This document shows positions 522-58,466 of a stretch of 64,000 bases of DNA, in pieces. Where the stretch lies: the NCBI GenBank assembly GCA_963825055.1, contig CAWGSK010000007.1, positions 152,450-216,449 on the forward strand, in the 5' to 3' direction. A model generated the notes under the pieces. That model searched no databases. It was not told where the DNA came from and saw only the letters and a list, made by a program, of their open reading frames with translations. Each line of letters starts with the position of its first letter. Position 1 is the stretch's first letter. The stretch comes from an uncultured Gemmatimonadales bacterium. Its GTDB lineage: Bacteria > Gemmatimonadota > Gemmatimonadetes > Gemmatimonadales > GWC2-71-9. The translations under genes were made by a program, and so were the position numbers.

Positions 522-637
522 GCGGCAGTCGGCAATCGGCAAATCGGCAGTCGGCAGTCGGCAATCGGCAATGGGCAATCGGCAGTTGCGATGGCTCCTC
601 CCCTGAAACACTACTCACTACCCACTACTCACTGCTC
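522..637. repeat. Heptamer tandem-repeat arms (TCGGCAR array and CACTACT array)
   Basis: ggcagtcggcaatcggcaaatcggcagtcggcagtcggcaatcggcaa... then cactactcactacccactactcactgctc; the ppx stop codon lies inside the second array. Confidence 0.85.
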
Positions 638-2195
638 CCTCTTCCACCACCTCGACCTCCACCCCCAGCACCTTCCCCAGCACGTCCGCCTTGCTGCCGG
701 CGCTCCAGCATTCCAGGCCGATGTCGGCGCTCTTCCGGGCCGGGGAGGCGGTGATCACGAGGCGTTTCTGGTCCAGGGAGGTCTTGAGCCCCCGGACGGC
801 GCCGACGTGACCCCGGTCGAGGCCGTCCGCCACGCGGAGGATGCCGGAGAGGCGCCGCACGACAGCCTGCTCGCTCCTGTCCAGCGCCGAGAACCCCTCG
901 TGCTTCCCGCGCGGCCCCTTCTTCCGGTGGTAGCGCGCGATGAGTGCCACGAGGCTGCGGTCGGAGGGCGCGAGGTTGAGCCGCTCGGCGTGCATGATGA
1001 GCTGGTAGCTGTGCTTGTGGTGCTTGCGATAGCTCATCATCTGGCCGATGTCGTGCAGCAGGGCCGCGGTTTCGAGGAGTCGGCGCTCCTCGGGGCCCGC
1101 GCCAAGGTGGCCCTGAAGCTGGGTGAACAGTTCGACGGCCAGGGCCCGCACGTGCTCGGCGTGCTCCCGGTCCACCTGGCAGCGCTCGACGAATTCGCGT
1201 GCCTCCCGGAGCGGCTCCTCCGGCTCGCCGCGCCCGGCCAGGCCCGCCATCTCCAGCAGCAGGCCTTCGCGGAGCCCGAAGGCGCTGATGGTCACCTCGC
1301 GGGCCTCCACCCAGTCGAGCAGGGCCGACATGATGGCCAGCCCTCCCACGATGATGTCGGCACGCTGCGGGTTGAGCCCGGGCAGCTGCCTCCGCTCCTC
1401 GGGCGACATGTGGGAGAGCCGGTCCAGCAGCTGCTCCACGTCCGCCACCGCGACCGTCATCCCGTGGACCTGTCCGACTGTGGGCAGGTCGCGCTGCGCG
1501 GCCACCATGCGGCCGAGATTGGTGAAGGTGCCGCCCGACCCGATCACGCGCGACCGGGTCCATTCGCGACCAGGCAGTGACCTGCGAAGGGCCTTCCTGA
1601 CTGCGTTCCGGATCTTCCGCACCTGGCGAAAGGGATTCTTCCCGCCCTGGAGGTACGTCTCGGTGACGCGGACTGCCCCGTACGGCATGGAGGCGGACTG
1701 TTCAACCAGGCCGTCCACGGCCCCGATCAGTTCCAGGCTGCCGCCGCCGATATCGGCGACGATCGTGCGACCGCCTGAAAGCTGGAAGTGGTGGTTCACC
1801 GAGCGATAGGAGAGGCTCGCCTCGATCTCCTCGTCGATGATCCGGAGCGGGATCCCGAGTTCGTCCCGGACCAGGCGGCAGAAGGCCTCGCCGTTAGCTG
1901 CGTCGCGTACCGCAGCCGTAGCCACCGCCGCCACGCGGCGCACATTGCGACGCTCGCAGACCGCGCGCATCCGGCGCAGCGTCTGGAAGGCCCGCTCCAT
2001 GGCCTCCTCGCTCAGCAGGCCGGACGCCGCCAGCCCCGCCGCAAGGCGGGGCTGCTCCTTGACCTCGTCGATGATGCGAAGGCCGGTGGCGGGTTCGTAG
2101 GCCGCGACCACCAGCCGGATGGAGTTGGAGCCCACGTCGAGCGCCGCGAAGGGCTCGCCCGGGGACACGGCCTGCCGGTGGTGCGGGCCGCTCAT
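618..2195 (-). CDS. ppx: Ppx/GppA exopolyphosphatase with C-terminal HD domain
   Basis: AALDVGSNSIRL, ATAAVRDAAN, DIGGGSLE, GLREG, LLHDIG motifs; lies in the pst operon. Confidence 0.92.
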   Translation of the reverse strand: MSGPHHRQAVSPGEPFAALDVGSNSIRLVVAAYEPATGLRIIDEVKEQPRLAAGLAASGLLSEEAMERAFQTLRRMRAVCERRNVRRVAAVATAAVRDAANGEAFCRLVRDELGIPLRIIDEEIEASLSYRSVNHHFQLSGGRTIVADIGGGSLELIGAVDGLVEQSASMPYGAVRVTETYLQGGKNPFRQVRKIRNAVRKALRRSLPGREWTRSRVIGSGGTFTNLGRMVAAQRDLPTVGQVHGMTVAVADVEQLLDRLSHMSPEERRQLPGLNPQRADIIVGGLAIMSALLDWVEAREVTISAFGLREGLLLEMAGLAGRGEPEEPLREAREFVERCQVDREHAEHVRALAVELFTQLQGHLGAGPEERRLLETAALLHDIGQMMSYRKHHKHSYQLIMHAERLNLAPSDRSLVALIARYHRKKGPRGKHEGFSALDRSEQAVVRRLSGILRVADGLDRGHVGAVRGLKTSLDQKRLVITASPARKSADIGLECWSAGSKADVLGKVLGVEVEVVEEGAVSSG

Positions 2196-18011: not shown

Positions 18012-18823
18012 CGGACATCGGAGCCGCGGCAGCGGTGGTGCGTGAGCGGCTCGACGGCTTTTCCCCCGAAGTCGCCATTGTCCTGGGCTCGGGCCTTGGC
18101 GGGCTGGCCGCCCGCCTGGAGGACGCCATCCGCATTCCCTATGGCGACATACCAGGCTTCCACGCGCCATCGGTGGAAGGCCACAGGGGAGAGCTCGTGG
18201 CCGGGACCCTCGCGGGACGGCGCGTGCTGGCCCAGGCCGGCCGGTTCCACATGTATGAGGGATACGACGCGAATACCTCGGCGCTTCCGGTCCGCGTGTT
18301 CGGCGCGCTCGGCATCGGCACCATGATCGTAACCAACGCCGCCGGCGGCATCCGCCGGACCTTTCGTGCCGGCTCGCTCATGCTCATCGCGGACCACCTG
18401 AATTTCACGGGCCGGAACCCGCTGGTCGGGCCGGTGCTCGAGGGCGAGGAACGCTTCCCGGACATGTCAGACCCCTACGACAGGGGGCTCCGGGCACTCG
18501 CGCGGGACGCAGCGACACGCGAAGGGGTCATGCTGGAGGAGGGTGTCTACGCGGGACTGCTGGGGCCGAGTTACGAAACACCCGCCGAGGTCCGCATGCT
18601 GGAGCGCGTCGGCGCCGACGCCGTCGGCATGTCCACCGTCGTGGAAGTCATTGCCGCCCGGGCCCGCGGGATCCGCTGCCTCGGTTTCTCCTCGATCACC
18701 AACCCCGCCGCCGGCATCAGCGCCGAGCCCCTGTCGCACAAGGATGTGATGGCGGCGGCGGACAGGGTGACGGGGGACCTGGTGAAGGTGGTGGAAGGGG
18801 TGCTGGAGAGTAGTGAGCAGTGA
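18008..18823 (+). CDS. punA: Purine nucleoside phosphorylase (PunA/XapA type)
   Basis: IVLGSGLG, GRFHMYEG, TNAAGG, GPSYETPAE, GMST. Confidence 0.93.
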   Translation: MTDIGAAAAVVRERLDGFSPEVAIVLGSGLGGLAARLEDAIRIPYGDIPGFHAPSVEGHRGELVAGTLAGRRVLAQAGRFHMYEGYDANTSALPVRVFGALGIGTMIVTNAAGGIRRTFRAGSLMLIADHLNFTGRNPLVGPVLEGEERFPDMSDPYDRGLRALARDAATREGVMLEEGVYAGLLGPSYETPAEVRMLERVGADAVGMSTVVEVIAARARGIRCLGFSSITNPAAGISAEPLSHKDVMAAADRVTGDLVKVVEGVLESSEQ

Positions 18824-18957
18824 TTAGTGAGTAGTGATTAGTGCTTCAGGGATGGTTCCGCCCGGGCAGACGGACAGCGTCGCAAGGAGATGGCTCCGCC
18901 AATGCACTACTCACTACTCACTACTCACTAGTCACTAGTCACTAGTCACTAGTCACT
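18809..18957. repeat. Inverted heptamer arrays: (AGTAGTG-like)x5, 61-bp spacer, (CACTACT/CACTAGT)x7
   Basis: Directly visible; contains the stop codons of punA and thiD. Confidence 0.9.
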
Positions 18958-19730
18958 CTGTGCCCCAGCGGCCCCCTCCCGCCCCCCAGCCCCGGCGCCC
19001 CTCGAATCGCCCGCTGCACGTAGTCAACCGCCGACTCCACCGCCGATTCCAGTGAGTGCCCGAGGGCGAGCCCCGCGGTGATGGCCGCCGAGAGCGTGCA
19101 GCCGGTGCCGTGGGTCGAGGTGGTGTCGATCCGCTCGTGGGTGAAGCGACGGCTGCCGTCTGGCGTGACCAGCAGGTCCACCAGGGTGTCGCCACCCATG
19201 TGTCCGCCCTTGATCAGGGCGGCCCGCGCGCCCCGGTCGAGCAGCACCTTCCCGGCTCGCTCCATGTCCGCCTCGCTCCCCACGTCCATCGCCGCCAGGA
19301 TGGCGGCCTCGTGCAGGTTGGGGGTCACGATCATCGCGAGGGGCACGAGCAGGCCGAGCAGGGCCTGTTCGGCATCCTGGTCGAGCAGGCGGTCCCCCGA
19401 GGTTGCGACCATTACCGGATCCAGCACGTAGCGCGCCCACTTCCGGTGCCGGACCTGCTCCGCGACAAGGTTGACCAGGGCGGGGGAGGCCAGCATCCCC
19501 GTCTTCACGGCATCGGGCGGGAGGTCCTCCGCCACGGCGTCGAGCTGGTCGAGGACGGTTTCCCCCGGCACGGCGTGTACCGCCCGGACACCACGCGTGT
19601 TCTGGGCGGTGACGGCGACGATCACGCTGGTGCCGTGAACACCGTACTGGTGGAAGGTCTTGAGGTCCGCCTGGATGCCCGCCCCGCCGCCCGAGTCCGA
19701 GCCGGCGATGGTGAGCGCGATTGCGCTCAC
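18942..19730 (-). CDS. thiD: Hydroxymethylpyrimidine/phosphomethylpyrimidine kinase
   Basis: [41 protein letters not shown]. Confidence 0.95.
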
Positions 19731-21299: not shown

Positions 21300-22062
21300 G
21301 GGCGTGATCGTGGCGTTTGCCGGGCTCCTCGGCCTGATCCTCGGCAGCTTCCTGAACGTCTGCATCCTCCGGCTGCCGGCCCGGCAGTCGATCGTGCATC
21401 CACCCTCACGCTGCCCGAACTGCGGCGAGGGGGTGCGGTGGTACGACAACGTGCCGGTGCTCTCCTGGCTGATCCTGCGGGGGAAATGCCGTCACTGCGG
21501 CAACCCGATCTCGATCCAGTACCCGCTGGTCGAGCTCGCCACGGCTGCCATCTGGGCCGGCATGGCACTGCTGTTCACCGCGCCGCTCGACATCCTTGCC
21601 GCCGCCCTCTTCCTGACCCTGCTGCTCGGCATCGCCATGACCGATGCGCGGGAATACATCATCCCGGACGAGTTCTCGCTGGGCGGACTCGTCATCGGGA
21701 TCCTCGTCAGCCTCAGGGCCGGGCTGCCGGGCCTGCGGGACGCAGCCATCGGGGCGGCGGTGGGATTCGCGGTGCTCTGGCTCGTCGCGATCGTGGGCAA
21801 GCGGCTCTTCCGCAAGGAGGCCATGGGCGGTGGCGACATCAAGATGATGGCCATGGTCGGCGCCTTCCTTGGCTGGCAGGGCGTCTTCCTGACCATCTTC
21901 CTCGGCTCCGTGGTGGGGACGCTGGTCTTCGGACCGCTCGCGCTGGTCGGAAAGAAGAAGGAAGTGCCCTTCGGGATCTTTCTGGCGCTCGGGGGCGCAG
22001 TCACGTTCTTCTGGGGCCCGGCCCTGCTCGACTGGTACCGCAGTTACCTGGTGGCCTCGTGA
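21289..22062 (+). CDS. pilD: Prepilin peptidase
   Basis: GSFLNVCILRLP, SRCPNC, GKCRHC, MGGGDIK, VPFG. Confidence 0.93.
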   Translation: MTDKGVIVAFAGLLGLILGSFLNVCILRLPARQSIVHPPSRCPNCGEGVRWYDNVPVLSWLILRGKCRHCGNPISIQYPLVELATAAIWAGMALLFTAPLDILAAALFLTLLLGIAMTDAREYIIPDEFSLGGLVIGILVSLRAGLPGLRDAAIGAAVGFAVLWLVAIVGKRLFRKEAMGGGDIKMMAMVGAFLGWQGVFLTIFLGSVVGTLVFGPLALVGKKKEVPFGIFLALGGAVTFFWGPALLDWYRSYLVAS

Positions 22063-23264
22063 CGCGTTCCGGCCTCGCCCTGATTGCCGGGATCGGGCTG
22101 GCCGCGTGCCGGGGCGAACCACCCCGCCCGCCGGCGGATGAACTCGCCCACGTCGTGGACAGCCTCAAGCCTGCCATTGAAGCCGCTGCCGGGCTCCAGT
22201 TCACCCGCCCGGTGCGCTCGGCGCTCCGGAGCCGGGAGCAGGTGCGGGCCTATCTCATCCAGGAATTCGACGACCAGCTTCCACCCGAGCGGCTCGAAGG
22301 GCTGGAGAATGCCTATCACCTCTTCGGGCTTCTCCCGGACAGCCAACAGCTCCGCCCGCTGCTGATCGACGTCCTGACCGAGCAGGTGGCGGGCTACTAC
22401 GATCCCGACTCTACCACGCTGTACGGGGTGGCTGACCAGAAGGGGATCCAGTTGCGTGCGGTGGTGGCGCACGAACTCGTACACGCCCTCCAGGACCAGC
22501 ACTATCCACTGGACTCGCTGCTGGAACAGCAGGAGGATGGCGACCGTGCCGCGGCGGCGCAGGCCATCCTCGAGGGCCAGGCACACTACGCCTCAGTGAA
22601 GCTGCTGGTGGGAGAGGCGGCGGACGTCACGACCATGGAATTCTGGGACACGGCGCGAGAGCAGACCCGTCAGGCGCAGGAGCAGCTTCCGCGCTTCGGC
22701 AAGGCGCCCGTCGCGATCCGCGAAGAACTGCTCTTTCCGTACATCAGCGGGGCGGAGTTCATGCGCTGGTGGTTCGTGAACCACCCGGACGCGCTTCCCT
22801 TCGACGAGCGGATGCCTCTTTCCACCGAACAGATCTTCCATCCTGACCGCTACGCGGCCGGTGATGCGCCGCTCACCGTCCGGTTCACCACCTCCGACAG
22901 CACCGTCATGTTCGAGGACGACGTGGGCGAACTGGGCCTGGCCACCCTGGCGGCGTCGGCAGCCAATACCGTCGCCATTTCCACCACCCGGGCCTATGGC
23001 TGGGGCGGCGACCGCTACCGGGTGTACCGCACCCCCGGCGGCCCCGCCCTCGTCTGGTTCGTCCTGTTCGATGACCCCGCCTATGCCGACCGTTTCTACA
23101 CCGGCCTCGCCAGCGTGATGGAACGGGACTTCAAGCGGCCCGGATATGCCTTCCATCGCGAGCGGGTGGAAGTAGAGGGAAGTGCAGGGGTGAAGGTGGT
23201 GGTGGGGCCGGAGGGGTGGGAGCCACTAGAGGTAGTGCAGGTCAAAAAAGAGCGTGAGCGGTAA
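22059..23264 (+). CDS. Zincin-like lipoprotein (hypothetical)
   Basis: LAAC lipobox, VAGYYDP, VAHELVHALQDQ, LEG, FPY. Confidence 0.75.
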   Translation: MTRSGLALIAGIGLAACRGEPPRPPADELAHVVDSLKPAIEAAAGLQFTRPVRSALRSREQVRAYLIQEFDDQLPPERLEGLENAYHLFGLLPDSQQLRPLLIDVLTEQVAGYYDPDSTTLYGVADQKGIQLRAVVAHELVHALQDQHYPLDSLLEQQEDGDRAAAAQAILEGQAHYASVKLLVGEAADVTTMEFWDTAREQTRQAQEQLPRFGKAPVAIREELLFPYISGAEFMRWWFVNHPDALPFDERMPLSTEQIFHPDRYAAGDAPLTVRFTTSDSTVMFEDDVGELGLATLAASAANTVAISTTRAYGWGGDRYRVYRTPGGPALVWFVLFDDPAYADRFYTGLASVMERDFKRPGYAFHRERVEVEGSAGVKVVVGPEGWEPLEVVQVKKERER

Positions 23265-23321
23265 GCGGTAAGCGGTGAGCCGGAAAGTGAGGACAGCCTG
23301 AACGGTGAACCGTGAACGGTA
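23250..23321. repeat. Left heptamer arm (GCGGTAA/ACGGTGA)
   Basis: gagcgtgagcggtaagcggtaagcggtgagc...tgaacggtgaaccgtgaacggta. Confidence 0.85.
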
Positions 23322-23614
23322 TCAGACGGCGCGGCACCGTTGAACCAGGCCGAGCAGGAGGCGCTGAGAGCGTCTGTTGCGGGAGAGCAGGGGATCGATT
23401 GTTGCCCGGGGGATCGCTTCTGAGTCCTTGGCGAGTTCGAGTAGCTCCCCCGTCTCTATGGCGGAGCCGTAGGCGATCTCAAAATGGTGAGCCTGCCGTC
23501 GACCTGGGCCGTAGGCGTACCCTTCGGCAATGTTGAGTTGCACGGACAGAGCCGAACGCTGGATCTGGGAGAACAGTGCAGCGCACCATGGCTTCCAACA
23601 GGTACGGGCCAACC
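23322..23614 (-). pseudogene. Four-helix-bundle (23S_rRNA_IVP/TIGR02436, Avd-like) gene, 5'-truncated
   Basis: SQIQRSALSVQLNIAEGY...IAYGSAIET family motif; the expected N-terminal L.AWQ segment is missing. Confidence 0.8.
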
Positions 23615-23615
23615 C

Positions 23616-23740
23616 GAACTCGCCAGGGACGCAGAAGCGGTTCCTGCGGCCACGATAGACACCCTGCTGCTCCCGCAATCAGCGGTGACCAGCGCCTCCT
23701 CCTCGGCATGCTCAAGCAACACCGCCCCTTCAAATCCCCT
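23616..23740 (+). pseudogene. Inverted 3' fragment of a paralogous four-helix-bundle gene
   Basis: ELARDAEAVPAATIDTLL /frameshift/ QRLLLGMLKQHRP aligns to ELAKDSEAIPRATIDPLL..QRLLLGLVQRCR of the minus-strand copy. Confidence 0.75.
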
Positions 23741-23804
23741 TCACCGATTCACCGTTTACCGCTCACGCTGTTTCCGTTTTGCCGTTCACCGTTCACCGCT
23801 CACC
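23741..23804. repeat. Right heptamer arm (TCACCGT/TTACCGC), inverted relative to the left arm
   Basis: tcaccgattcaccgtttaccgctcacgc...gttcaccgttcaccgctcacc; contains the DUF445 stop codon. Confidence 0.85.
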
Positions 23805-25362
23805 CTAATAAGACATTCACGCCAAACGCCACCAGCCCCACCACCGCCCCCAGCACATATCCGAGTCTGACGATCAGGTCCAGCTCCCGCTGGGTCACGT
23901 CCTTCACGATCTGCTCCATCCGCTGCGTACTGAAGCCCAGCACCTTCTGCTCCACCATCTCCTGCACCTTGAACTGCTCCACCACCGCGGGGATCTGTCG
24001 CTGCACCCATCCCCAGGCCGCGGTGGTGACGGCTTCCTCGATCTTCGCCGTCATCTCCGGCCCCATCCACCCGGCCGGCCGGCCGATGGGCCGGTCCAGC
24101 AGGTGGTCCGCCACGCTCCGGACGGCCTCCTCCACCCAGTGACGTCCCCGCTCGCCGCCCAGGGCGTCGGCGGCGAAGGCGGCCACCTGCGCCGGGGGGA
24201 TGGCTTCGAGCAGGTCACCCCAGGTCCGCTGCTCGGCGGCGGTGAGCGCCCGGTCCACGGTCTGGCCGATGACCCGGCGGGTTCCCTCGTCCCGCGCCAC
24301 CCGCATCAGCCAGTCACCCAGGGTCTCGGCGAGCCCCTCTACCCGGTCCTCGCCGAGGCGGCGGAACCGCTCGGCCAGCGGCACGCGCAGGAAGTTCACC
24401 ACGGCGTCGTTGACCGCCCGCGCGACCTGGCTCTTCACGCCCGGCTCGTGGAGCCCCTCGGCCAGGCGGTCGAGTCCGCGCCGCTCGAACCCGTCCACCA
24501 GCCGCTCGATGGTGCGGTCGGTGACCATCAGCTTGGCCAGCACCCGCTCGTGGATAAGCAGGTCCCGGACTGTGTGATCGAATGCGTCGCGGAGGGAGAC
24601 CTGGATCTTCCGGCGGGCATCGGGATCGGCCAGGATGCCGCTCAGCCGGTCCACCGCCACGGGCAGGTAGTCCGTGATGCCCTGCTCCACGGCCCCGATC
24701 AGACCCGGGGGGAGTCGGTCCAGCATTGCCCGGTCGTCGTGGGAGAGCTTGTCCAGCTGGTCACGCACGAAGCCCCGGAGCGTACGTTCCAGCTCCTCAC
24801 CCTGCGCGAGCTGGGTGACCCAGTCCTCCACTTTCCGGCTGAGGGACTCGCGCCGTTCAGCAGTCAGCAGCTCACCCAGCGACCGGTCGCCCACCTCCTC
24901 CCGGAGCTTCGTCATCCACTCAGTCACCCGGGCCTCGAAGGCCGGCGAGCGGGCGTAGTCCGCCAGTCGCTCGGCCAGCCCGCTGCTCACCCGGGGCAGG
25001 GAAGACTCGATGGCCTCCAGCACCGGCGGACTGAGCAGGCCGCGGAGGGGGCCCCGCTCCGTTTCCATGATGTCCGTGACCGCCCGGCGGACTGCGTCGT
25101 CGAAGGCCTTCCGGAGGGCCGGGTCGGACAGGCGTCGGGCCAGGTCTTCGCTGGTGAGCAGGCGCTCACCAACGGCCTTGCCGACGCTTTTGGCGAGGCG
25201 GGGCTTGTTCTTGGGGATGGCCCCGTGGAAGCGGAAGGGGCCGAACCCGGAGGGCTCATGGGGGTGGAACAGCATCCACACCGCCACGGCGTTGGTGATC
25301 CCGCCGGAGAGGGCGCCCACCAGCACCGTGACCAGGCCCGTGATGAGGGTCGAGGAATCCAT
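23800..25362 (-). CDS. DUF445-family membrane-anchored protein
   Basis: GGITNAVAVWMLFHP...GAIPKNK and ELDLIVRLGYVLGAVVG termini. Confidence 0.85.
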   Translation of the reverse strand: MDSSTLITGLVTVLVGALSGGITNAVAVWMLFHPHEPSGFGPFRFHGAIPKNKPRLAKSVGKAVGERLLTSEDLARRLSDPALRKAFDDAVRRAVTDIMETERGPLRGLLSPPVLEAIESSLPRVSSGLAERLADYARSPAFEARVTEWMTKLREEVGDRSLGELLTAERRESLSRKVEDWVTQLAQGEELERTLRGFVRDQLDKLSHDDRAMLDRLPPGLIGAVEQGITDYLPVAVDRLSGILADPDARRKIQVSLRDAFDHTVRDLLIHERVLAKLMVTDRTIERLVDGFERRGLDRLAEGLHEPGVKSQVARAVNDAVVNFLRVPLAERFRRLGEDRVEGLAETLGDWLMRVARDEGTRRVIGQTVDRALTAAEQRTWGDLLEAIPPAQVAAFAADALGGERGRHWVEEAVRSVADHLLDRPIGRPAGWMGPEMTAKIEEAVTTAAWGWVQRQIPAVVEQFKVQEMVEQKVLGFSTQRMEQIVKDVTQRELDLIVRLGYVLGAVVGLVAFGVNVLLG

Positions 25363-29419: not shown

Positions 29420-29435
29420 TTCATGCAACAGCCTT

Positions 29436-29508
29436 ACCACAGAGAGCACAAAGGACACAAAGAAAAAGTAAAAACTGTACTTAGTCTGTTCTTCGTGCCC
29501 TTTGTGGT
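29436..29508. repeat. Inverted 9-mer repeat arms (ACCACAGAG/CACAAAG ... CTTTGTGGT)
   Basis: accacagagagcacaaaggacacaaag ... cttcgtgccctttgtggt. Confidence 0.7.
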
Positions 29509-29553
29509 GAAAGCCATGACTTTCACCCGGACCGATCCTCCAACCCGAGCCAC

Positions 29554-31989
29554 GTGATGCCCCGCGCCATCCGCTTTCTCGTCGCCCTCTCGCTCCTCGC
29601 CTCCACCGCCGCCGCGCAGACCAACGCGGAGCGCATGCTGAATGACCGCTACACCCGGTCGCACGACTACGACCTGGTCCACCAGCGGATCGAGCTCGCC
29701 GACTTCAACTGGGACTCGACCTCCTTCACCGGGAAGGTCACGACCACCCTCGTGGCGCTCCGGCCGGGCTTCGACTCCGTCGTCATGGATGCCGGGCAGA
29801 AGCTCGTCATCCGGAACGTTGAGATGAACGGGGCGAAGCTCGCCACGGGGCGTCACGGTGACACGCTGGTGGTGAAGCTCCCGAAGGCCATCGGGTTCGG
29901 CGATTCCGTGACCTTCAGTGTCGCCTATGACGGGAAGGTCGAGAACGGCCGGGGACTGACCTTTATCGACGCCGAGAAGGGGAGGGCGCACCGGCCAAGG
30001 CAGATCTGGAGCCAGGGCGAGGATGACAACAACCACTACTGGTTCCCGACCTACGACTTCCCGAACGACAAGATGTCGTGGGACATGGTCGTGACGGTCC
30101 CGAAGGGGTTCACCGCGGTCTCCAACGGTACCCTCGAGTCGGACGAGACCGGGGCCCGCGGCCGCACCATGCACTGGCACCAGGCGAAGCCGAGCACCAC
30201 GTACCTTGTCTCGCTCATCGTGGCGCCGCTGGTGAAGGTGTCCGATACATGGCGGAACACCCCGGTCGACTACTACGTCTACCCCGAGGACAGCACGCTG
30301 GCGCCGCGCCTCTTCAACGTGACGCCGGACATGATCGAGGTCTACTCGCAGCTCACCGGGGTGGACTATCCCTGGGCCAAGTACGCCCAGACCACCGTGG
30401 CCGACTTCTTCGGCGGCATGGAGAACGTCAGCGCCACCACGCTGGTGGACTGGCTGCCGGACAACATGGCCTACCAGGACCGCCCGTGGTTCCAGTACAT
30501 CCTGATCCCGCACGAGCTCGCCCACCAGTGGTTCGGCGACTACATGACCACCGAGAACTGGGCCAACATGTGGCTGAATGAGGGCTTCGCCGAGTTCCTG
30601 CCCGGGCAGTACTGGGCGACGAAGCTCGGCCGGCACGCGGAAGAGGATTACTACGCCGACGAGTACCGGCAGTTCATGAACATCGACCGCCGCCGCCGGA
30701 TGCCGCTCGCCAGCAGCGGGTCGAACAACATCTACCCCAAGGGCGCCCTCGTCCTGGAGATGCTCAAGCACCAGCTGGGCGAGAAGCCCTTCTGGGCCAG
30801 CATTCACTACTTCCTCGAGCGGCATGCGTACGACAATGCCGTCACCGACGACCTCCGCCAGGCCGTGCTCGAGACCACCGGCCAGAACCTCGACTGGTTC
30901 TGGGACCAGTGGATGTACCAGGCGGGGTATCCCGAATTCAAGGTCACCGCGTCGTATGACACCGCCGGGAAGGCGCTCACGCTCGCGGTGAGCCAGGTGC
31001 AGGTGGACAGCTCGAAGGCGGATTCCACCGGCCTCCGCTACACCACGCCCTCGATCTTCCGGATGCCGGTGACGGTGAAGGTGGGGACGTCGAACGGCGA
31101 GGTGACCCGCCGGTTCCAGCTCGACCAGCGTGAGCAGACCCTGCTGATCGACAGCCTCCCCGGCGCGCCGACGATGGTCATCTTCGACGATGACAACACG
31201 ATTCTCAAGACACTCGACTTCCAGCAGCCGACCGCGTGGCTCGTCACCCAGCTCGCGCAGGACCCGGACCTCTGGAACCGGCAGTGGGTGATCGGCGAGC
31301 TGGCCGACCGGACCGACGATGCCGCCGCCCGTGAGGCGCTGTCGAGGGCGGCCACGTCGGCCGATTACTACCTCACCCGGGCCCAGGCTGTAGATGCCCT
31401 GACCGCGTTCGACGCCGCCGGGCTTCCCGCCATCGAGAGGGCGCTGTCCGACACCTCCGCGCAGGTCCGGGAAGCGGCGGCAGGAGCGCTGGGGCAGGTC
31501 GGGGGCGACCAGGCCATCCGCCTGGCCCACCGGGCCTTCGAGCAGGACAGCAGCTACGCCGTGAAAGCCGCGGCCCTGGGCGCCATCAGCCGGATCGACT
31601 CAACCGGCCGCCACGACGCGATGGGGAAGGGGCTCGTGATGAAGAGCTATCGCGATGTCATCCAGCAGGCGGCGCTCGGCGGGATCTTCCGGACGGGAGA
31701 CAGCACCTTCGTCCCGCAGCTCGAGACCCTCATGCCCGAGCAGAACGCGGCATCGCTGGTGCTCGCGGGCCTTGCGTCCAAGGGGAGCAGCGCTGCCCGC
31801 GGGGTCCTGGCGCAGCACCTGAACGACGGGCGCCGCTGGGTGCGCCAGTGGGTGGTCCAGGCCGTACCGCGGATGATGAAGCCCGACCAGGCGAAGGCGT
31901 TCTTCCAGGAGAACCGGAAGAAGCTGAAGTTTGATGACACGAGAACGGCAGTTGATGCTGCGATGGAAAGACTGAACAAGACCGAATAG
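29554..31989 (+). CDS. M1-family aminopeptidase with C-terminal HEAT repeats
   Basis: GGMEN, HELAHQWFGD, WLNEG, IYPKG; signal peptide. Confidence 0.93.
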   Translation: MMPRAIRFLVALSLLASTAAAQTNAERMLNDRYTRSHDYDLVHQRIELADFNWDSTSFTGKVTTTLVALRPGFDSVVMDAGQKLVIRNVEMNGAKLATGRHGDTLVVKLPKAIGFGDSVTFSVAYDGKVENGRGLTFIDAEKGRAHRPRQIWSQGEDDNNHYWFPTYDFPNDKMSWDMVVTVPKGFTAVSNGTLESDETGARGRTMHWHQAKPSTTYLVSLIVAPLVKVSDTWRNTPVDYYVYPEDSTLAPRLFNVTPDMIEVYSQLTGVDYPWAKYAQTTVADFFGGMENVSATTLVDWLPDNMAYQDRPWFQYILIPHELAHQWFGDYMTTENWANMWLNEGFAEFLPGQYWATKLGRHAEEDYYADEYRQFMNIDRRRRMPLASSGSNNIYPKGALVLEMLKHQLGEKPFWASIHYFLERHAYDNAVTDDLRQAVLETTGQNLDWFWDQWMYQAGYPEFKVTASYDTAGKALTLAVSQVQVDSSKADSTGLRYTTPSIFRMPVTVKVGTSNGEVTRRFQLDQREQTLLIDSLPGAPTMVIFDDDNTILKTLDFQQPTAWLVTQLAQDPDLWNRQWVIGELADRTDDAAAREALSRAATSADYYLTRAQAVDALTAFDAAGLPAIERALSDTSAQVREAAAGALGQVGGDQAIRLAHRAFEQDSSYAVKAAALGAISRIDSTGRHDAMGKGLVMKSYRDVIQQAALGGIFRTGDSTFVPQLETLMPEQNAASLVLAGLASKGSSAARGVLAQHLNDGRRWVRQWVVQAVPRMMKPDQAKAFFQENRKKLKFDDTRTAVDAAMERLNKTE

Positions 31990-31996
31990 AAACGGC

Positions 31997-32086
31997 GTGA
32001 ACGGTAAGCGGTTAGCGGTAAGCGGTGAGCGGGGTCGCAATTCGCGTCTTGTTCCCGCATTCACTGCTCACCGCTCACTGCTCACG
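31997..32086. repeat. Empty inverted heptamer arms (GCGGTRA ... TCACYGC)
   Basis: gtgaacggtaagcggttagcggtaagcggtgagcgg, 27-bp spacer, ttcactgctcaccgctcactgctcacg. Confidence 0.85.
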
Positions 32087-33092: not shown

Positions 33093-33165
<73 letters not shown>

Positions 33166-33182
33166 TCGTAGCCAAGCACTTA

Positions 33183-38430
<5,248 letters not shown>

Positions 38431-44095: not shown

Positions 44096-44114
44096 GGCCC
44101 GTTCACGGAAGTCT

Positions 44115-44207
44115 TGTCATTTCGAGCGCAGCGAGAAATCTCAAGAGTCGGTTGCTGTCGAGGGCTGCTCTTGAGATCTCTCGGGCCTGGCGGCCCTCGA
44201 GATGACA
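44115..44207. repeat. 93-bp palindromic REP/MITE-like element, copy 1
   Basis: TGTCATTTCGAG...AAATCTCAAGAG / CTCTTGAGATCT...CTCGAGATGACA; followed by a CCCCTCGA octamer array. Confidence 0.85.
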
Positions 44208-44461
44208 CGATCTTCGGAGCGACCCCTCGACCCCTCGACCCCTCGACCCCTCGACTCCTCAACTCCAGCCCTTTACCCACCCCCTCCCACCCCCTAGGTT
44301 CCGGCTCCCGGCGCTCTCGGGCCCCTGTCGCCGGGATCTGTTCGGCCCTGCTGGTCCCCCGCTGTACCTCAGGATTTTCCGACGCAGACTTGACGGTCCC
44401 ATTTTCGAGGGCAATATTGGCCGCCCGTCCAAGTTCCCTCAGGCTTGGAGTCTCAGATACA

Positions 44462-44992: not shown

Positions 44993-45055
44993 TCGTTGAG
45001 TCGCTAAATCGTTGAGTCGCACGACTCAACCACTCAACGACTAAACCACTCAACG
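44993..45055. repeat. Empty inverted octamer arms (GTTGAGTC / GACTCAAC)
   Basis: tcgttgagtcgctaaatcgttgagtcg-ca-cgactcaaccactcaacgactaaaccactcaacg. Confidence 0.85.
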
Positions 45056-45060
45056 CCCTT

Positions 45061-45798
45061 GTGCCCTCCCTCCACCACCTCTCCTACTCCCCCGGCGGCA
45101 CCCAGCCTCCCCATTACCACCCCGAGTCCTCCATCACCATCATCCTGGGCGGCAGCCTGACCGAGCGGGTCGGCCGCCGAACCGTCGAGGCCGGGCCCCT
45201 GTCCGTGGTGGTGAAACCTGCCGGGGTCACGCACGCCAACCGCCTGGGCAGCACGGGCGCGAGCACCGTCCAGGTCGAGCTGGGCGGCCTGGTGGATGCC
45301 GACACGCCCGAACGGCTGCTCGGCCCATGGCGCTGGTTCCACACGGGCAGCGCGGCGCGCCGCATGCTCCGGATTCTCAGGGGATGGCGCGGCGGGGTAG
45401 AGGAGCCGCTGGAGATGGAGCGCGCGGTCTGTGACTGCATCGGCGCCCTGGAGATGCCACGCGAGGCTGATGTCCCCCGATGGCTCAGCCGCGTCGCGGA
45501 GGAGCTGGATGACACCGCAGCCTCCCCTCCGCCCGTAACCGAACTGGCCGGGCGCGCCGGCCTGCATCCGGTGTCGCTTGCCCGGCTCTTCCGCCGCCAT
45601 TTCGGGACCTCGATCACCGAACGCATCCGCCGCCGGCGGGTCGAGTGCGCCGCCGGACTGCTCGCCGCCGACTCGGCCGGGCTGGCGGAGATCGCCCTCA
45701 CCACGGGCTTTGCCGACCAGAGCCACCTCAACCGGGTCTTCCGTCGCGAGACCGGCCTCACCCCTGGCGCCTACCGGCGGCTGGCCCGACCCGCCTGA
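45061..45798 (+). CDS. AraC-family transcriptional regulator with cupin domain
   Basis: HYH, H.N, GLHPVSLARLFRRHFG, GFADQSHLNRVFRRETGLTPGAYR. Confidence 0.9.
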   Translation: MPSLHHLSYSPGGTQPPHYHPESSITIILGGSLTERVGRRTVEAGPLSVVVKPAGVTHANRLGSTGASTVQVELGGLVDADTPERLLGPWRWFHTGSAARRMLRILRGWRGGVEEPLEMERAVCDCIGALEMPREADVPRWLSRVAEELDDTAASPPPVTELAGRAGLHPVSLARLFRRHFGTSITERIRRRRVECAAGLLAADSAGLAEIALTTGFADQSHLNRVFRRETGLTPGAYRRLARPA

Positions 45799-47416: not shown

Positions 47417-47626
47417 AGAGCAGGGCGGTCGAGACGGTCCAGCGAGACCCTCGTCGCCGGAAGCGACGACGTGCCGAGCAGTGACCGAAGGGAATACCAT
47501 GACGCGAGCGACGCGGCCCACAGGCGCGGCAATCCCGCGCCTCGGCCGCGAGTGAACGCTTGGCGGCTTCAGCCGCGTGGAAAGGTCGGTCGTGAATAAG
47601 GCGGTGGTGCCGCTTCAAGGAAGCCG

Positions 47627-47719
47627 TGTCATTTCGAGCGCAGCGAGAAATCTCAAGAGTCGGATGTTATCGAAAGCGGCCCTTGAGATCTCTCGGGCCT
47701 GGCGGCCCTCGAGATGACA
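47627..47719. repeat. 93-bp palindromic REP/MITE-like element, copy 2
   Basis: Arms essentially identical to copy 1, loop diverged; followed by CGCCTCCA and GACTCAAC octamer arrays up to ~47862. Confidence 0.85.
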
Positions 47720-47856
47720 CGATATTCGGAACGCCTCCACGCCTCCACGCCTCCACGCCTCCACGCCTCCACGCCTCCACGCCTCCACGCCTCAACGACT
47801 CAACGACCTCAACCACTCACCCACTCAACGACTCAACGACTCAACCACTCAACCCC

Positions 47857-48753
47857 TCAACGCCTCTCCCTCCACCCCTCCACAATCCCGGCAATCTTCG
47901 CTATCCACACCTCCCCGTCCGGCAGTTCATCGAACCCCCGGGTCAGCACCGTCAGCACCCAGGGCGACCCGTCCTGCGGATAGACGATGCCCGCGTCGTG
48001 CGCGATGCGGGTGATCGAGCCGGTCTTGTGCGCCACCCTGGTGCCCGGCGGCAGCCCGGCGGGGATTCCCTCATTGAACTCCTGGCCAGCAAGGATCGCG
48101 ATCATCACGTCAGTGGACGCCGGGGACGCCGCCCGCCCGTCGGCGATGGCCGTGAACAGTGCGTCCAGGTCCCGCGCGGTGGTGGTGTTGCTCATTCCCT
48201 GCTCGTAGGCCTTGATGTCCTCCACGCCTCGCAACACGTGGATGGAGTCCGCGCCGAACTCATGCGCGGTGGAGTCCACGCGCTTCGGATCCAGCATCTC
48301 GATCAGCACGTTGGTGGCGAGATTGCTGCTCCAGCGGATCATGTGTTCCGCCATGAACCGGATCGACACCTTCCGGTCCGTAAGCGCGTACATGAGCGAG
48401 TCAGAGTCGTCGGCCGGGCTCAGGGAATAGGGGGAGCCATCCACGATGGAGGTGAACCGGTTCACCACCGGGACCGAGTCCTCCCAGTCAAAGTCCCCGG
48501 CGTCCACCCGGCGGGCCAGCTCGATCAGGACCGGTACCTTCATCGTGCTCGCCGCATGATACCGGCGGTCAGCGTCGATGTAGATTGTGTCTCCGTTGCC
48601 AAGGTCGCGGTACGCGACGCTGATCTCCGCCCCGGAGGCCGCGATGGCCTGCAGGAGGGAGTCCCGGAGGGCCGGGAGGGCAGGATTCTGCCCCCGGAGG
48701 GGGGCCGGGAGGAGGAACAGGGCGGCCACCAGGCCGAGGCACGGGATTCGCAT
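47857..48753 (-). CDS. Class A beta-lactamase-like serine hydrolase
   Basis: AASTMK, SSN, AHKTG, HDAGIV; signal peptide. Confidence 0.85.
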   Translation of the reverse strand: MRIPCLGLVAALFLLPAPLRGQNPALPALRDSLLQAIAASGAEISVAYRDLGNGDTIYIDADRRYHAASTMKVPVLIELARRVDAGDFDWEDSVPVVNRFTSIVDGSPYSLSPADDSDSLMYALTDRKVSIRFMAEHMIRWSSNLATNVLIEMLDPKRVDSTAHEFGADSIHVLRGVEDIKAYEQGMSNTTTARDLDALFTAIADGRAASPASTDVMIAILAGQEFNEGIPAGLPPGTRVAHKTGSITRIAHDAGIVYPQDGSPWVLTVLTRGFDELPDGEVWIAKIAGIVEGWRERR

Positions 48754-49465: not shown

Positions 49466-51130
49466 ATGAAACGCTGGATCGCCCCGCTCGCGCTTGCTGC
49501 CATCGCCGCCTGTGCGGGACATTCCGCGCCTCCTCCCGCCGCGCCCGACCCGGCGCTCGGCTCGGAAGTGGCCCTGCAGGACAGTTCCGTGGCAGCCGTC
49601 GCCGCCGCTGCCGACACGCTGCTCGATGCGGAGACCGCCGCCGAGCTTCGCGCCGCTGCCGACTCCGCGGCCGATGCCGTGGCCCTTGAACAGCTCGAGA
49701 ACGCCTCGCCGGACGACTCGGGTGACGAAGTTGGCGGGCCCGACGCGGCCCACGCGGACGTCACCTGGGACATTGACGTCACCACCTTTGGCGACAACGA
49801 GCGGGTACAGTTCTACCTCGACTTCTTCCAGACGAAGGGCCGCGACCGGATGGCGGTCTGGCTCTCCCGGCTCCCCTACTACGAACCGATGATCCGCGAG
49901 GAGCTCGCCGATCAGGGACTCCCTGGTGACCTGGTCTACCTGGCGCTGATCGAGAGCGGGTTCTCCAACGCCGCCGTGAGCCGTGCCCGTGCCACCGGCA
50001 TGTGGCAGTTCATGGCCGGTACCGCCCGCATGTACGGCCTCAGGGTGGACAGCTGGGTGGACGAGCGGCGCGATCCGTATCTCGCCACCGACGCCGCGGC
50101 GCGCCACCTGAAGGACCTGCGCGACCGCTTCGGGTCGCTCTACCTCGCCGCCGCGGCCTACAATGCCGGGGCAGGGAAGGTGAGCCGGGGCCTCCGGCGC
50201 CTGCCGGAGGAAGACGGCGAGGACCTCACCAGCGACGAGACCTACTTCCGCCTGGCCGACACGCGCCACCTGCGCCGCGAGACGAAGGACTACGTGCCGA
50301 AGCTCATCGCCGCGGCACTGATCGCGAAGGAGCCGGCGCGCTATGGCTTCACGCCGCCGGAGCCGGTCGAGCCCGCGGTGTGGGACTCACTCATCGTGCC
50401 GGACGCCACCGGGCTCGACGTGATCGCAAAGCTGGCGGACACGTCGGTGGCCGCCATCCGCGCGATGAACCCCAAGTATCTCCGCATGGCAACGCCGCCC
50501 GGTACCAGGAGCGTCGTTCGTGTGCCCGATGGGCATGGCAACCAGGTCCGGGTCGCCTACGCCGACCTGCCGGCCTCGAAGCGGGTGTCGTTCGTGGAGC
50601 ACCGCGTGACGAAGGGGCAGACTGTGGGCGGGATCGCCAAGCATTACCACGTCTCCGTCTCCGACCTCCGGCTTGCCAATCCGGGCCTTCACTCGCTCAT
50701 CCGCATCGGGCAGCGGCTCATCATCCCGACCGGCGGCGTTGTCGCCGCGCGGAATGCCGTGGGCGCGCAGGATCGCCGGGCAGCGGCGCAGGTTGCCGTG
50801 CAGGGCAGCTATCACCGCGTCCGTCGGGGCGAGACTCTCTCCGAGATTGCGGATGACTACCACGTGAGCGTCAGTCAGTTGCAGTCCTGGAACAACCTGG
50901 GCCGTTCGACGCGAATCAGGGCCGGCCAGCAGCTCCGGGTCCACAGCGCCACCACCACCGCCCGCCATGCCAGCAGTGGCCGGACGGTGATCACCATCCA
51001 GCGTGGTGACACGCTGAGCGGCATCGCGGCCCGCTACGGCGTATCGGTCTCCGCCCTGCTCGAGGCCAACGGCCTCCGGCGCGATACCGTGATCAAGGCA
51101 GGGCACAAGCTCACCATCCCCGGCGCCTGA
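49466..51130 (+). CDS. mltD: Membrane-bound lytic transglycosylase D-like with three LysM domains
   Basis: LALIESG, GMWQFM, AAYNAG, ETKDYVPK, three LysM repeats; lipobox. Confidence 0.92.
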   Translation: MKRWIAPLALAAIAACAGHSAPPPAAPDPALGSEVALQDSSVAAVAAAADTLLDAETAAELRAAADSAADAVALEQLENASPDDSGDEVGGPDAAHADVTWDIDVTTFGDNERVQFYLDFFQTKGRDRMAVWLSRLPYYEPMIREELADQGLPGDLVYLALIESGFSNAAVSRARATGMWQFMAGTARMYGLRVDSWVDERRDPYLATDAAARHLKDLRDRFGSLYLAAAAYNAGAGKVSRGLRRLPEEDGEDLTSDETYFRLADTRHLRRETKDYVPKLIAAALIAKEPARYGFTPPEPVEPAVWDSLIVPDATGLDVIAKLADTSVAAIRAMNPKYLRMATPPGTRSVVRVPDGHGNQVRVAYADLPASKRVSFVEHRVTKGQTVGGIAKHYHVSVSDLRLANPGLHSLIRIGQRLIIPTGGVVAARNAVGAQDRRAAAQVAVQGSYHRVRRGETLSEIADDYHVSVSQLQSWNNLGRSTRIRAGQQLRVHSATTTARHASSGRTVITIQRGDTLSGIAARYGVSVSALLEANGLRRDTVIKAGHKLTIPGA

Positions 51131-51145
51131 AGCGCGTGCGGAGGA

Positions 51146-51189
51146 CAAACGAAACGCCCCGGTCCACTCGGACCGGGGCGTTTCGTTTG
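51146..51189. terminator. Bidirectional intrinsic terminator
   Basis: caaacgaaacgccccggtcc-actc-ggaccggggcgtttcgtttg between convergent genes. Confidence 0.85.
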
Positions 51190-51205
51190 CGGGGAAACCG
51201 TCGGC

Positions 51206-51889
51206 TCAGCGCGCGAGCGTCCGGTGGTAGCCGTTGAGCACTGACTTCGCGTAGCCGTTGGCGGGATTGCCGCCTTCCGCCAGGATCTGGGCCACGCGGG
51301 CCGGGCCGCGGTTGTAGGCCAGCAGCGCCAGGGACATGTCGCCGTCGTAGTTCCGGAGCAGGTCGTTCAGGAACCGGAAGCCGAGCCGGAGGTTCGTCTC
51401 GCGCTCGTACAGCTGCTCCTCGGTAATCCCGTGCTCGTAGTACCGCGCGGTCGGCACCTGGATCTGCGTGTAGCCGATCGCGCTCTTATTGCTCCTGGCG
51501 CCACGCTTGAAGTTGCTCTCCACCTTCACCAGGCGGAAGCCGAGTGAAGGGTCGAGCCCCTCCGAGAGTGCCACGTCATAAATGGCCGCGGCCAGGTCGG
51601 CCGGGACCTGGTACTGCTCCGAGTAGCCGAGCACCGCGTTGGCGCGCTCGAGCTGGAGCCGCGCCACGCCGAGGTCGCCCCGGGCCTTCTGCAGCTGGGC
51701 CGTGACCTCGCGGAACTGCCGGGCGGCCGTCTCGACGCCGATGGTTTCGACATCGTCCGAGGCCCGCGCACGGCCGACCGACCCGCCCACCGCGCTCACC
51801 AGCAGCGCGGCGCCGAGCACCAGGGCCGCATGCATGGCTATTCGACTCGTGCGCGATCGGAGCATCGCCTTGTACGTGACATCACTCAT
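51206..51889 (-). CDS. Lytic transglycosylase (SLT domain)
   Basis: VKVESNF, AIGYTQI, LLAYNRG. Confidence 0.88.
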   Translation of the reverse strand: MSDVTYKAMLRSRTSRIAMHAALVLGAALLVSAVGGSVGRARASDDVETIGVETAARQFREVTAQLQKARGDLGVARLQLERANAVLGYSEQYQVPADLAAAIYDVALSEGLDPSLGFRLVKVESNFKRGARSNKSAIGYTQIQVPTARYYEHGITEEQLYERETNLRLGFRFLNDLLRNYDGDMSLALLAYNRGPARVAQILAEGGNPANGYAKSVLNGYHRTLAR

Positions 51890-57106: not shown

Positions 57107-57786
57107 CACCGCGCCTGGCGCTCGTCCTCCTGCTCACACTGCCACTGGCCGGCTGCGGGGGGCACGCCGACCGCGAAGGGCTGCCGCTCGTGCACCTCCC
57201 GGCCGACAGGCCGGGTGACACTGCCGCCGTCATCATTTCGGGCGACGGCGGCTGGGCGGGGATCGACCGGGGAATCGGCAACTATCTCGCCGACCACGGC
57301 GTCAGCGTCGTCGGACTGAACGCACTGCGCTACTTCTGGGTCCCGCGCACGCCTGACGGTACCGCGCGGCACCTTGCCCGACTCATCGCAACGACGCTGC
57401 AGGAGGACGGGGCCCACCACGTGCTGCTCATCGGCTACTCGCGGGGGGCGGACGTGTTGCCCTTCGTCGTCCCCCTGCTGCCCGATTCCCTTCGCCGGTT
57501 CGTGGCCTCCGTGGCGCTCGTGGCCCCGTCACGCCACGCGAGTTTCGAATTTCACTTCATCGACCTCATCACGAGCGGAAAGGGCTCACTCGACGTCGTG
57601 CGGGCCATCACGGGTCTGCGGGGAATCCGCGTGCTCTGCATCTACGGCGTCGATGATCCTGATGCCGCCTGCCCCCACCTCCCACCGGAAGCGGCGAGGA
57701 TCGTCAGGATGAAGGGTGGGCACCATCTGGACGGGGCATACCAGGAGATAGCGAAGAGGATCCTGAGGGAGACGACAGAGAAATAG
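57103..57786 (+). CDS. acvB: AcvB/VirJ-family lysyl-PG hydrolase
   Basis: SGDGGW, LRYFW, IGYSRGAD, CIYG, GGHH; coupled to mprF. Confidence 0.88.
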   Translation: MTPRLALVLLLTLPLAGCGGHADREGLPLVHLPADRPGDTAAVIISGDGGWAGIDRGIGNYLADHGVSVVGLNALRYFWVPRTPDGTARHLARLIATTLQEDGAHHVLLIGYSRGADVLPFVVPLLPDSLRRFVASVALVAPSRHASFEFHFIDLITSGKGSLDVVRAITGLRGIRVLCIYGVDDPDAACPHLPPEAARIVRMKGGHHLDGAYQEIAKRILRETTEK

Positions 57787-58299
57787 CGGGGACAGGGCGG
57801 TCGTGAAGAGGGCGGTCGCAAAGAGGGCGGACGGGAACAACGGACGAAGAGGGCGGACGTGAAGAGGGCGGACGAGAAAAGGGCGGACGAGAACAGGGCG
57901 GTCAGGCGGTCGGGCGGTCGGGCGGTCAGGCGGACGGGGTCTGTCCGGGGGGTCGCGCATCGAGTCATAAAGTTTCCAGAGCAGCTTGCTCGCTCGCTCT
58001 CGCACCTCCTCAGTCCTTCGGAATTCTTCGGGACTGAGGTAGCCCAGCTCGTTAGCGAGGCGCAACAGGTAGGTCAGCTCCGACAGGGAACCCCTCGCAA
58101 GATCCAGGAATCGACGGAACTCTCGTGCGCCTCTCCTCGAAGATCCCTCGACGATGTTGGCAGCTGCCGACACAGCCGCGCGTCGTACCTGGGAGGTGAG
58201 GCCGTAGCGTTCATCCTGGGGCCACCTACCGGTCAATTCGTAGACAAGCAGCACGAGACGATGGCAGTGTTGCCAGGCGATCAGATTCTCGAAGCGCAT
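57586..58299 (-). CDS. Four-helix-bundle (23S_rRNA_IVP/TIGR02436, Avd-like) protein; domain ends ~57955 and the ORF reads on through the repeats
   Basis: FENLIAWQ, WPQDERYGLTSQVRRAAVSAAANIVEG, FLDLARGSLSE. Confidence 0.9.
   Translation of the reverse strand: MRFENLIAWQHCHRLVLLVYELTGRWPQDERYGLTSQVRRAAVSAAANIVEGSSRRGAREFRRFLDLARGSLSELTYLLRLANELGYLSPEEFRRTEEVRERASKLLWKLYDSMRDPPDRPRPPDRPTARPPDRPVLVRPFLVRPLHVRPLRPLFPSALFATALFTTALSPLFLCRLPQDPLRYLLVCPVQMVPTLHPDDPRRFRWEVGAGGIRIIDAVDAEHADSPQTRDGPHDVE
57790..57940. repeat. Left arm: 15-mer then 8-mer GGGCGGWC repeats
   Basis: gaagagggcggacgt-type units followed by gggcggtc/aggcggtc units. Confidence 0.85.
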
Positions 58300-58346
58300 T
58301 GTCTACCCTGGCGTCTTGCACTCAACCGAGCGACAACACACGTTTG

Positions 58347-58466
58347 GTCCGCCCGTCCGCCCGTCCGCCCGTCCGCCCGTCCGCCCGTCCGCCCGTCCGC
58401 CCGTCCGCCCGTCCGCCCGTCCGCCCGTCCGCCCGTCCGCCCGTCCGCCCGTCCGCCCGTCCGCCC
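58347..58466. repeat. Right arm: perfect (GTCCGCCC)x15
   Basis: 120 nt of perfect octamer, reverse complement of GGGCGGAC. Confidence 0.95.

Follow-up and report, generated by a model that had tools for sequence, protein, structure and literature searches.

Genes that abut short tandem repeat arms in the genome of this soil bacterium are depleted of cytosine on the strand that runs into the arm. This footprint is real and strong, it is anchored on the arm and it is strand-polar. For its origin we give an even chance to weak selection, or to a conversion bias that acts like selection, against pairing of the flank with the purine-rich arm. The window, i.e. the whole stretch of 64,000 nucleotides that was analyzed, corresponds to G000:C7:152450-216449; the assembly G000 comprises 3.53 Mb in 35 contigs, has ~68% GC and is 87% complete. 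The closest named loci are from Gemmatimonadales and share 77-80% protein identity.

The 3097 genes of the genome were called with a self-trained script. Arms were picked from the output of Tandem Repeats Finder by periodicity and non-coding position only, which gave 640; the counts of ends and starts leave out genes <450 nt, those with weak scores and those close to the end of a contig. The ~640 arms, which are mostly non-coding, have units of 7-9 nt and are purine-rich on the strand entering the site. With a score of >=40 there are 387 period-7 and 161 period-8 arrays genome-wide. An ORF is located <=30 nt from the 5' side of the G-rich strand in 381 of 611 arms and from its 3' side in 54 of 611. 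Neighboring arms within 300 nt occur 181 times in the order G-then-C and 3 times as C-then-G, i.e. they are inverted pairs with the G strand first. The partners share a unit in 23 of these 181 pairs and have differing units in the other 158. A GGG tract is absent from the most abundant units and found in a minority family only; because most units are without such tracts, the arms resemble the G-quadruplex class but are not members of it.

The following features of the window are relevant (skew is given for the flank named):

523..640: two arms next to ppx, at 523-584 (left) and ~598-640 (right, short)
618..690, minus strand: C-poor 3' end of ppx, skew +0.75
18740..18823, plus strand: C-poor 3' end of punA, skew +0.66; G at 10/10 four-fold sites of the last 20 codons
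18808..18957: arm pair between punA and thiD, arms 18808-18843 and 18905-18957
18942..19004, minus strand: C-poor 3' end of thiD, four-fold C 1/15; absent from the list of the initial annotation
23160..23264, plus strand: zincin-like gene (22059-23264 as called), C-poor 3' end, G53 A27 T14 C11, skew +0.66
23257..23322, plus strand: purine-rich heptamer arm over the stop codon of the zincin-like gene; the core as called is 23257-23280, and less exact copies extend to ~23322
23322..23678, minus strand: Four-helix-bundle gene between the arms (TIGR02436/PF05635, match limited to profile positions 26-107)
23740..23804, minus strand: right arm over the DUF445 stop, purine-rich on the minus strand
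23800..23870, minus strand: C-poor 3' end of the DUF445 gene (Pfam PF04286), sense-strand skew +0.56
29554..29620, plus strand: G-poor start of the M1 peptidase gene, skew -0.39; short hairpin-like repeat only
31920..32085, plus strand: 3' end of the M1 peptidase gene (to 31989, skew +0.33) and arm pair 31997-32032 / 32061-32085
45024..45145, plus strand: octamer arm 45024-45054, rich in C, then the AraC gene, whose start (from 45061) is G-poor, skew -0.68
47731..47920, minus strand: octamer arm (47731-47883) over the C-poor end of the beta-lactamase-like gene, skew +0.75
51060..51276: convergent ends of mltD and slt, arm-less control, skew -0.12 and -0.11
57710..58466: 3' end of the acvB-like gene (to 57786, skew +0.40), arms 57794-57938 and 58347-58466, and a second Four-helix-bundle gene
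~57961-58299, minus strand: this second Four-helix-bundle gene, near the acvB-like gene and between the two arms

The initial annotation had noted by eye that genes lose their C-ending codons at these repeat sites. All of the ends it named bear this out, with skews of +0.33 to +0.75, as against -0.12 and -0.11 at the mltD and slt controls. In the zincin-like gene four-fold C drops to 2/21 in the last 35 codons vs 37/54 in codons 36-120. Its further claim, that genes starting to the right of an arm are G-poor, is correct for AraC and for the M1 peptidase in composition; the M1 start at 29554, however, has no called tandem arm. The short hairpin-like repeats at 29425-29515, which precede this start, belong to a different family, and in the relative L530 this family sits after punA, thiD, DUF445 and the zincin-like gene. 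Two hairpin elements of the Ssn/NTS-like type (44097-44272 and 47609-47784, 82% identical) are located inside arm pairs. The C-terminal motif of thiD reads G-R-G-P-L-G-H here and G-H-G-P-L-N-H in L529 and L530; both changes drop C-containing codons. The Four-helix-bundle gene has 8 copies in the genome. Across 31 genomes a comparison of its count with the number of arms gives a rho of 0.31 (p 0.085) and was set aside; the result is the same without G014, on which no conclusion here depends.

The pattern holds across the genome. In the last 10 codons of the 245 arm-adjacent genes C occupies 140/1199 four-fold sites. At the control ends, 1915 in number, it occupies 5228/12623 (p 2e-105 by Fisher's test; p 4e-90 by a Mann-Whitney test on genes). 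A skew >0.3 occurs in 152/245 arm-adjacent ends and in 123/1915 control ends; the latter have C at ~0.35-0.46 in convergent and tandem classes and with short or long gaps. The effect is mirrored at gene starts: in 87 genes that start after a C-rich arm G is found at 81/572 four-fold sites vs 4917/13698 in 2053 control starts (p 4e-30). Measured from the outer arm edge on the entering strand, the log odds of C:G are -1.9, -1.9, -1.3, -0.6, -0.2 and 0 at ends and -2.5, -1.6, -1.0, -0.6, -0.25 and 0 at starts (bins to 100 nt). There is a plateau of ~30 nt, after which the signal fades and reaches baseline by ~80 nt; the decay with distance proposed earlier is thus evident, while the reach of 60-120 nt was overestimated at its upper end. 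Non-coding flanks follow the same decay curve as coding flanks and arm length leaves the curve unshifted. On the inner side, the curve is flat past 20 nt (27 long cores). A zone of fixed length measured from the center was rejected, since the profile is the same across arm lengths.

Together, the polarity, its independence of gene orientation and the decay with distance fit a single arm-anchored cause, as the initial annotation had argued. Control ends are unskewed, and the skew tracks the arm rather than the coding strand. Counter to the polarity pattern, 30 genes whose ends lie against an arm of C polarity also have lowered C (0.16-0.31 in the last 10 codons); a short G arm that escaped the caller is the probable reason. 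Six DUF445 ends of relatives (L144, L145, L153, L154, L164, L165) have zero four-fold C in their last 15 codons; they lie beside Ssn/NTS-like hairpins and have no tandem arms. This suggests that the footprint reaches beyond tandem arrays.

We then considered which letters replace C. Relative to the bodies of the same genes, the ratio A:G is the same (0.92 at four-fold and 1.00 at two-fold sites); T:G falls to 0.55 and C:G to 0.16. Relative to G, the loss is therefore about six-fold for C and about two-fold for T, and the depletion, though strong for C, is not specific to it as first described. C is lost by all synonymous routes, including those that lower GC (AGG, TTG, and ATA/ATT for ATC); the odds ratios near arms are 3.5 for AGG vs CGG, 2.9 for TTG vs CTG, 6.5 for ATA vs ATC, 2.1 for two-fold T vs C and 5.8 for four-fold G vs C. 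Neighboring bases have no effect, with odds ratios of 0.17-0.24 in all contexts. At the amino acid level Lys, Glu, Val and Gly go up in the flank and Ala, Pro and His go down.

These proportions bear on the mechanism that was originally proposed, namely deamination of cytosine on 3' single strands exposed by resection. The polarity suits a 3' overhang and the 2.1x rise of two-fold T vs C is in the expected direction. However, deamination alone requires that C-to-T is raised x31. Such a model predicts four-fold T of 0.35 and two-fold C of 0.11, and the observed values are 0.05 and 0.63. In the genus g21 of the same order C/T differences amount to 1/256 near arms vs 97/2697 at control ends, and a C-to-T model fits the tree of this genus no better than the null (lnL -384.3 for both). 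Cytosine damage is rejected because a 31-fold C-to-T rate would leave T at 0.35; the fall of T, the lack of neighbor context and the fit in g21 make this explanation highly improbable.

The idea of a telomere-like addition of repeats did not hold up either. A telomerase-like process was discarded since the genome (87% complete) yielded no match to a reverse transcriptase (0 to PF00078), and the flank is not a degenerate repeat: a periodicity of 7/8 is missing and the in-phase match is 0.305 vs 0.304 at 15-28 nt. Derivation of the flank from the unit of its own arm was rejected by a permutation test (88 own-unit 5-mers vs 92 permuted). An extension of the stem from flank to flank was also dropped: real pairs have -38.0 and mismatched pairs -38.5 kcal/mol (164 pairs), and opposite flanks are not complementary.

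From 33180 to 38130 the window is of low complexity (5 kb; A 2514, G 1300, T 636, C 500); this tract was excluded from the analysis. It follows directly after a tRNA-Lys (33093-33165), degraded phage-like ORFs extend to ~39300, and it looks like a failed long-read consensus across an integrated element. The presence of this tract could be taken to mean that the footprint itself is an artefact of sequencing or assembly. Yet the changes are synonymous and preserve the frame, and a skewed flank, the M1 start (29554-29620), is matched by two short-read contigs with 1 and 2 differences. Two genomes of genus g21, G020 and G038, show the same footprint. An artefact is the least probable of all explanations considered here.

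In g21 four-fold C at arm ends is 0.16 vs 0.38 in G020 (40 ends) and 0.12 vs 0.34 in G038 (20 ends); the footprint is weaker in G039 (0.29 vs 0.39) and G037 (0.31 vs 0.34). The pair G026/G028 (~90% identical) has too few arms, with zero arm/arm ends, and the genus of G023 was left out, its best pairs being 78% identical. Arm-less orthologs of punA, thiD and the zincin-like gene retain C-ending codons. In DUF445 orthologs C accounts for 10/81 sites at 8 arm loci vs 128/453 at 41 arm-less loci (p 0.07; 53 of 68 loci were usable, 4 intermediate ones were omitted and near-duplicates were retained). These C-ending codons in the arm-less punA, thiD and zincin-like orthologs speak against a preferential insertion of arms at gene ends that were already G-rich, and so does the finding that just 123/1915 control ends have a skew >0.3. 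In its favor, ends are C-poor in some relatives that were scored as arm-less (C 0.30, 15 arm/no pairs). We consider insertion preference very unlikely.

Across phyla, GGGAATC arrays have skewed flanks (0.23-0.25 in the first 40 nt at the 70 GC-rich loci; 112 of 123 loci were used). The footprint is weak in Moorena, with C at 0.13 vs 0.17 at arm ends, and too weak for a rate test. In the dcw cluster of 30 Xanthomonas species, which offers two arm ends only, there is no skew (C 0.47 vs 0.42 over 20 codons). In this cluster (L449:9891-12335) arm pairs follow ddl in 26 and ftsA in 28 of the 30 species; they are mostly missing in Stenotrophomonas. From the differences between g21, Moorena and Xanthomonas it follows that the strength of the footprint depends on the lineage.

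A footprint of this kind could result from mutation or from selection. By our own arithmetic, mutation alone should cause ~1.35-1.5x more change near arms, and selection a change slightly below background. The genome contains 17 contig pairs (e.g. C12/C25 and C9/C33), ~305 kb of haplotype or strain duplicates with 80-99.9% identity, which serve as polymorphism data. In these duplicates (305 kb aligned) 16/204 four-fold sites differ in 21 arm genes, vs 16.5 expected from the bodies of the same genes (O/E 0.97); control ends give an O/E of 0.95. Swaps between C and G number 5, where mutation alone would lead us to expect ~12.5 (p 0.015, Poisson). The test comprises 16 events only and its total is compatible with a 1.35x rate (p 0.11). 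A hypermutability of three-fold or more near arms is not compatible with these counts. The tree of g21 (24 genes, 150 columns) gives a different picture. The best one-parameter model is any-to-G mutation x2.4 (lnL -358.7), followed by selection for G (-363.3, i.e. 4.6 log units behind) and selection against C (-367.7). The rate is ~x1.8 over codons 1-15, drops to x1.0 over codons 16-30 and is x0.9 in the gene bodies. The gap between the models narrows without the last 2 codons, and the bootstrap is unstable; the rise in rate could be inflated by small samples, terminal misalignment and recent gain of arms. The two rate tests point in opposite ways and neither is decisive.

The g21 result belongs to an explanation by biased re-synthesis, which we regard as a serious contender, though less probable than pairing avoidance. 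It says that 3' ends that stall or recombine at an arm are trimmed repeatedly and re-made by an error-prone polymerase, which places purines opposite template purines; in coding DNA only tolerated, silent changes would then survive. Several observations agree with this. The decay curves of ends and starts superimpose and non-coding flanks behave alike; the tree fit favors any-to-G, with the faster rate confined to codons 1-15; and deviations of single units inside arms lead to G in 59/3036 and to C in 19/4834 cases, a difference of ~5x. Arms are also replaced at the gene boundary: of 48 orthologous arm/arm pairs in g21, 36 have different units while the arm itself stays at the gene end, as judged by a rough caller and from pairs that are not independent. 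The genome has two DinB-family and three LigD-polymerase matches, and repeats have been proposed to draw error-prone polymerases (PMC3114760). About 320 nt from one of the LigD-polymerase matches (C3:90209-90943) there is a 119-aa GIY-YIG frame (G000:C3:91267).

Against re-synthesis, the haplotypes are without excess differences, and the model needs five substitution types that are raised in fixed proportions and without context. The DinB family occurs in 28/31 genomes whatever the number of arms, and a search of G011, the relative with the most arms (85% complete), found none. A faster change between species is also predicted by selection after the gain of an arm. If this explanation were extended, the arms might mark sites of a hitherto undescribed DNA process that exchanges the repeat cassette again and again and also rewrites the adjoining ~70 nt, with a bias from pyrimidine to purine that is specific to one strand. 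About 600 loci would then carry a local field of mutation or conversion that reshapes codons and protein termini (e.g. of thiD), and this field would be the origin of bacterial heptamer arrays. We put this forward as a tentative proposal, a little less probable again than re-synthesis as such.

Selection, or a selection-like bias, against pairing with the arm is slightly favored over biased re-synthesis. C and T are likely lost from the flanks because these letters would pair with the array. The arm would act as a single strand, in mRNA or single-stranded DNA, which is either unpaired or paired with its partner arm; this single strand would probably be read by a protein, for example the four-helix-bundle passenger, and the flanks would thus be adjusted to purine-rich arms in general. 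C, which forms a strong pair, would be avoided more than T, which forms a weak one. One propensity per base across all codon boxes, ranked like pairing strength, is the pattern that we would expect from a reversible fixation bias, and the pattern is mirrored at starts beside a pyrimidine-rich arm. In the first 120 arm genes the predicted pairing between flank and arm is 0.034 in real vs 0.063 in recoded sequences, i.e. about half. The flank-arm duplex has -13.8 kcal/mol vs -16.8 kcal/mol for control flanks. Some results argue against pairing avoidance. The arm pairs with downstream sequence to the same degree (0.614 vs 0.620) and the predicted structural gain is small. Flanks avoid their own arm and other arms alike (-13.81 vs -13.81), and the composition of the flank is hardly related to that of the current arm (all rho <0.1, 322 arms). 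The tree fit of g21 and the weak or absent footprint in Moorena and at the two Xanthomonas ends count against this reading too. Avoidance would not be unit-specific because the unit of the arm turns over, as in the 36 of 48 orthologous pairs above.

The C-rich, G-poor strand that leaves the arm could also be selected as a loading site for Rho, which would end read-through and antisense transcripts. The genome contains rho and a second rho-like gene. The canonical rho is on C34; the second gene (G000:C15:84955-86101) is shorter and scores 464 bits, under the curated cut-off. The reach of the footprint is longer at convergent than at tandem ends (C in codons 11-20 182/800 vs 200/630, p 1.5e-4), and the effect is weak in the cyanobacterium Moorena. 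Cyanobacteria are not known to carry Rho. Suppression of antisense transcription by Rho has been described (PMC12360218). Against loading of Rho stand the starts, which are equally strong although the C-rich strand there is the gene's own mRNA; divergent starts (33) have G at 30/227 vs 51/347 in tandem ones. Furthermore, the flank zone is no shorter beside long arms and the effect was not seen at the two Xanthomonas ends. We judge this explanation unlikely, albeit less so than insertion preference or cytosine damage.

Many phyla have heptamer and octamer arrays whose function and origin are unexplained; the footprint provides a measurable handle on what they do. It shows that ~70 nt of flank are either affected by the arrays or constrained along with them. 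It touches at least 332 of the ~3100 called genes, which is enough to bias analyses of codon usage, skew and dN/dS at gene termini in such genomes.

In the literature searched, with subscription journals mostly outside its scope and supplements (notably of Rehm 2015) not covered, codon skew beside such arrays was not found. The class of arrays is known, without explanation, and the codon footprint is new so far as this search reaches. Rehm et al. (2015) described GGGAATC and GGGGA(C/T)T heptamers of Xanthomonas and Nostoc; according to the accessible text, no function was found and the gene order around the repeats is conserved (PMC4692102). Like these, the arms are intergenic tandem heptamers, often in inverted pairs, with the G-rich strand after a sense stop or before an antisense start. 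Unlike them, the arms of this genome belong to many families side by side, with units of 7, 8 or 9 nt; most are not capable of forming a G-quadruplex and partners usually differ; the flanking codons are skewed, for which the accessible text contains no report (PMC4692102). Short tandem arrays in opposite-strand pairs or near gene starts are also known from the paired hepta/octanucleotide sites of Geobacter (PMC2700814) and the TAACTGA repeats of Beggiatoaceae (PMC4679880). They were interpreted as binding sites of regulators, and an effect on flank composition is not described in the portions of these papers that are accessible. The repeats of the Ssn nuclease/NTS system are similar to hairpins in some of our cores and after several C-free DUF445 ends of relatives, and single-stranded DNA is the substrate of the nuclease, as stated in the accessible text (PMC11893778); the arms themselves, however, are tandem and not hairpins. 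The nearest mutational precedent is repeat-induced recurrent repair (McDonald et al. 2011, PMC3114760), in which the substitution pattern near repeats is altered and rich in transversions; strand polarity and a directional shift in composition, as found here, are undescribed in the accessible text. Where recurrent repair is judged by the rate near repeats, our data give an O/E of 0.97 in haplotypes vs ~x1.8 in g21. A rut tract is C-rich and G-poor over 60-100 nt on one strand. The leaving strand of the arms shares this composition, but it differs from rut tracts in that it is equally present on the sense strand of gene starts and is anchored on a repeat.
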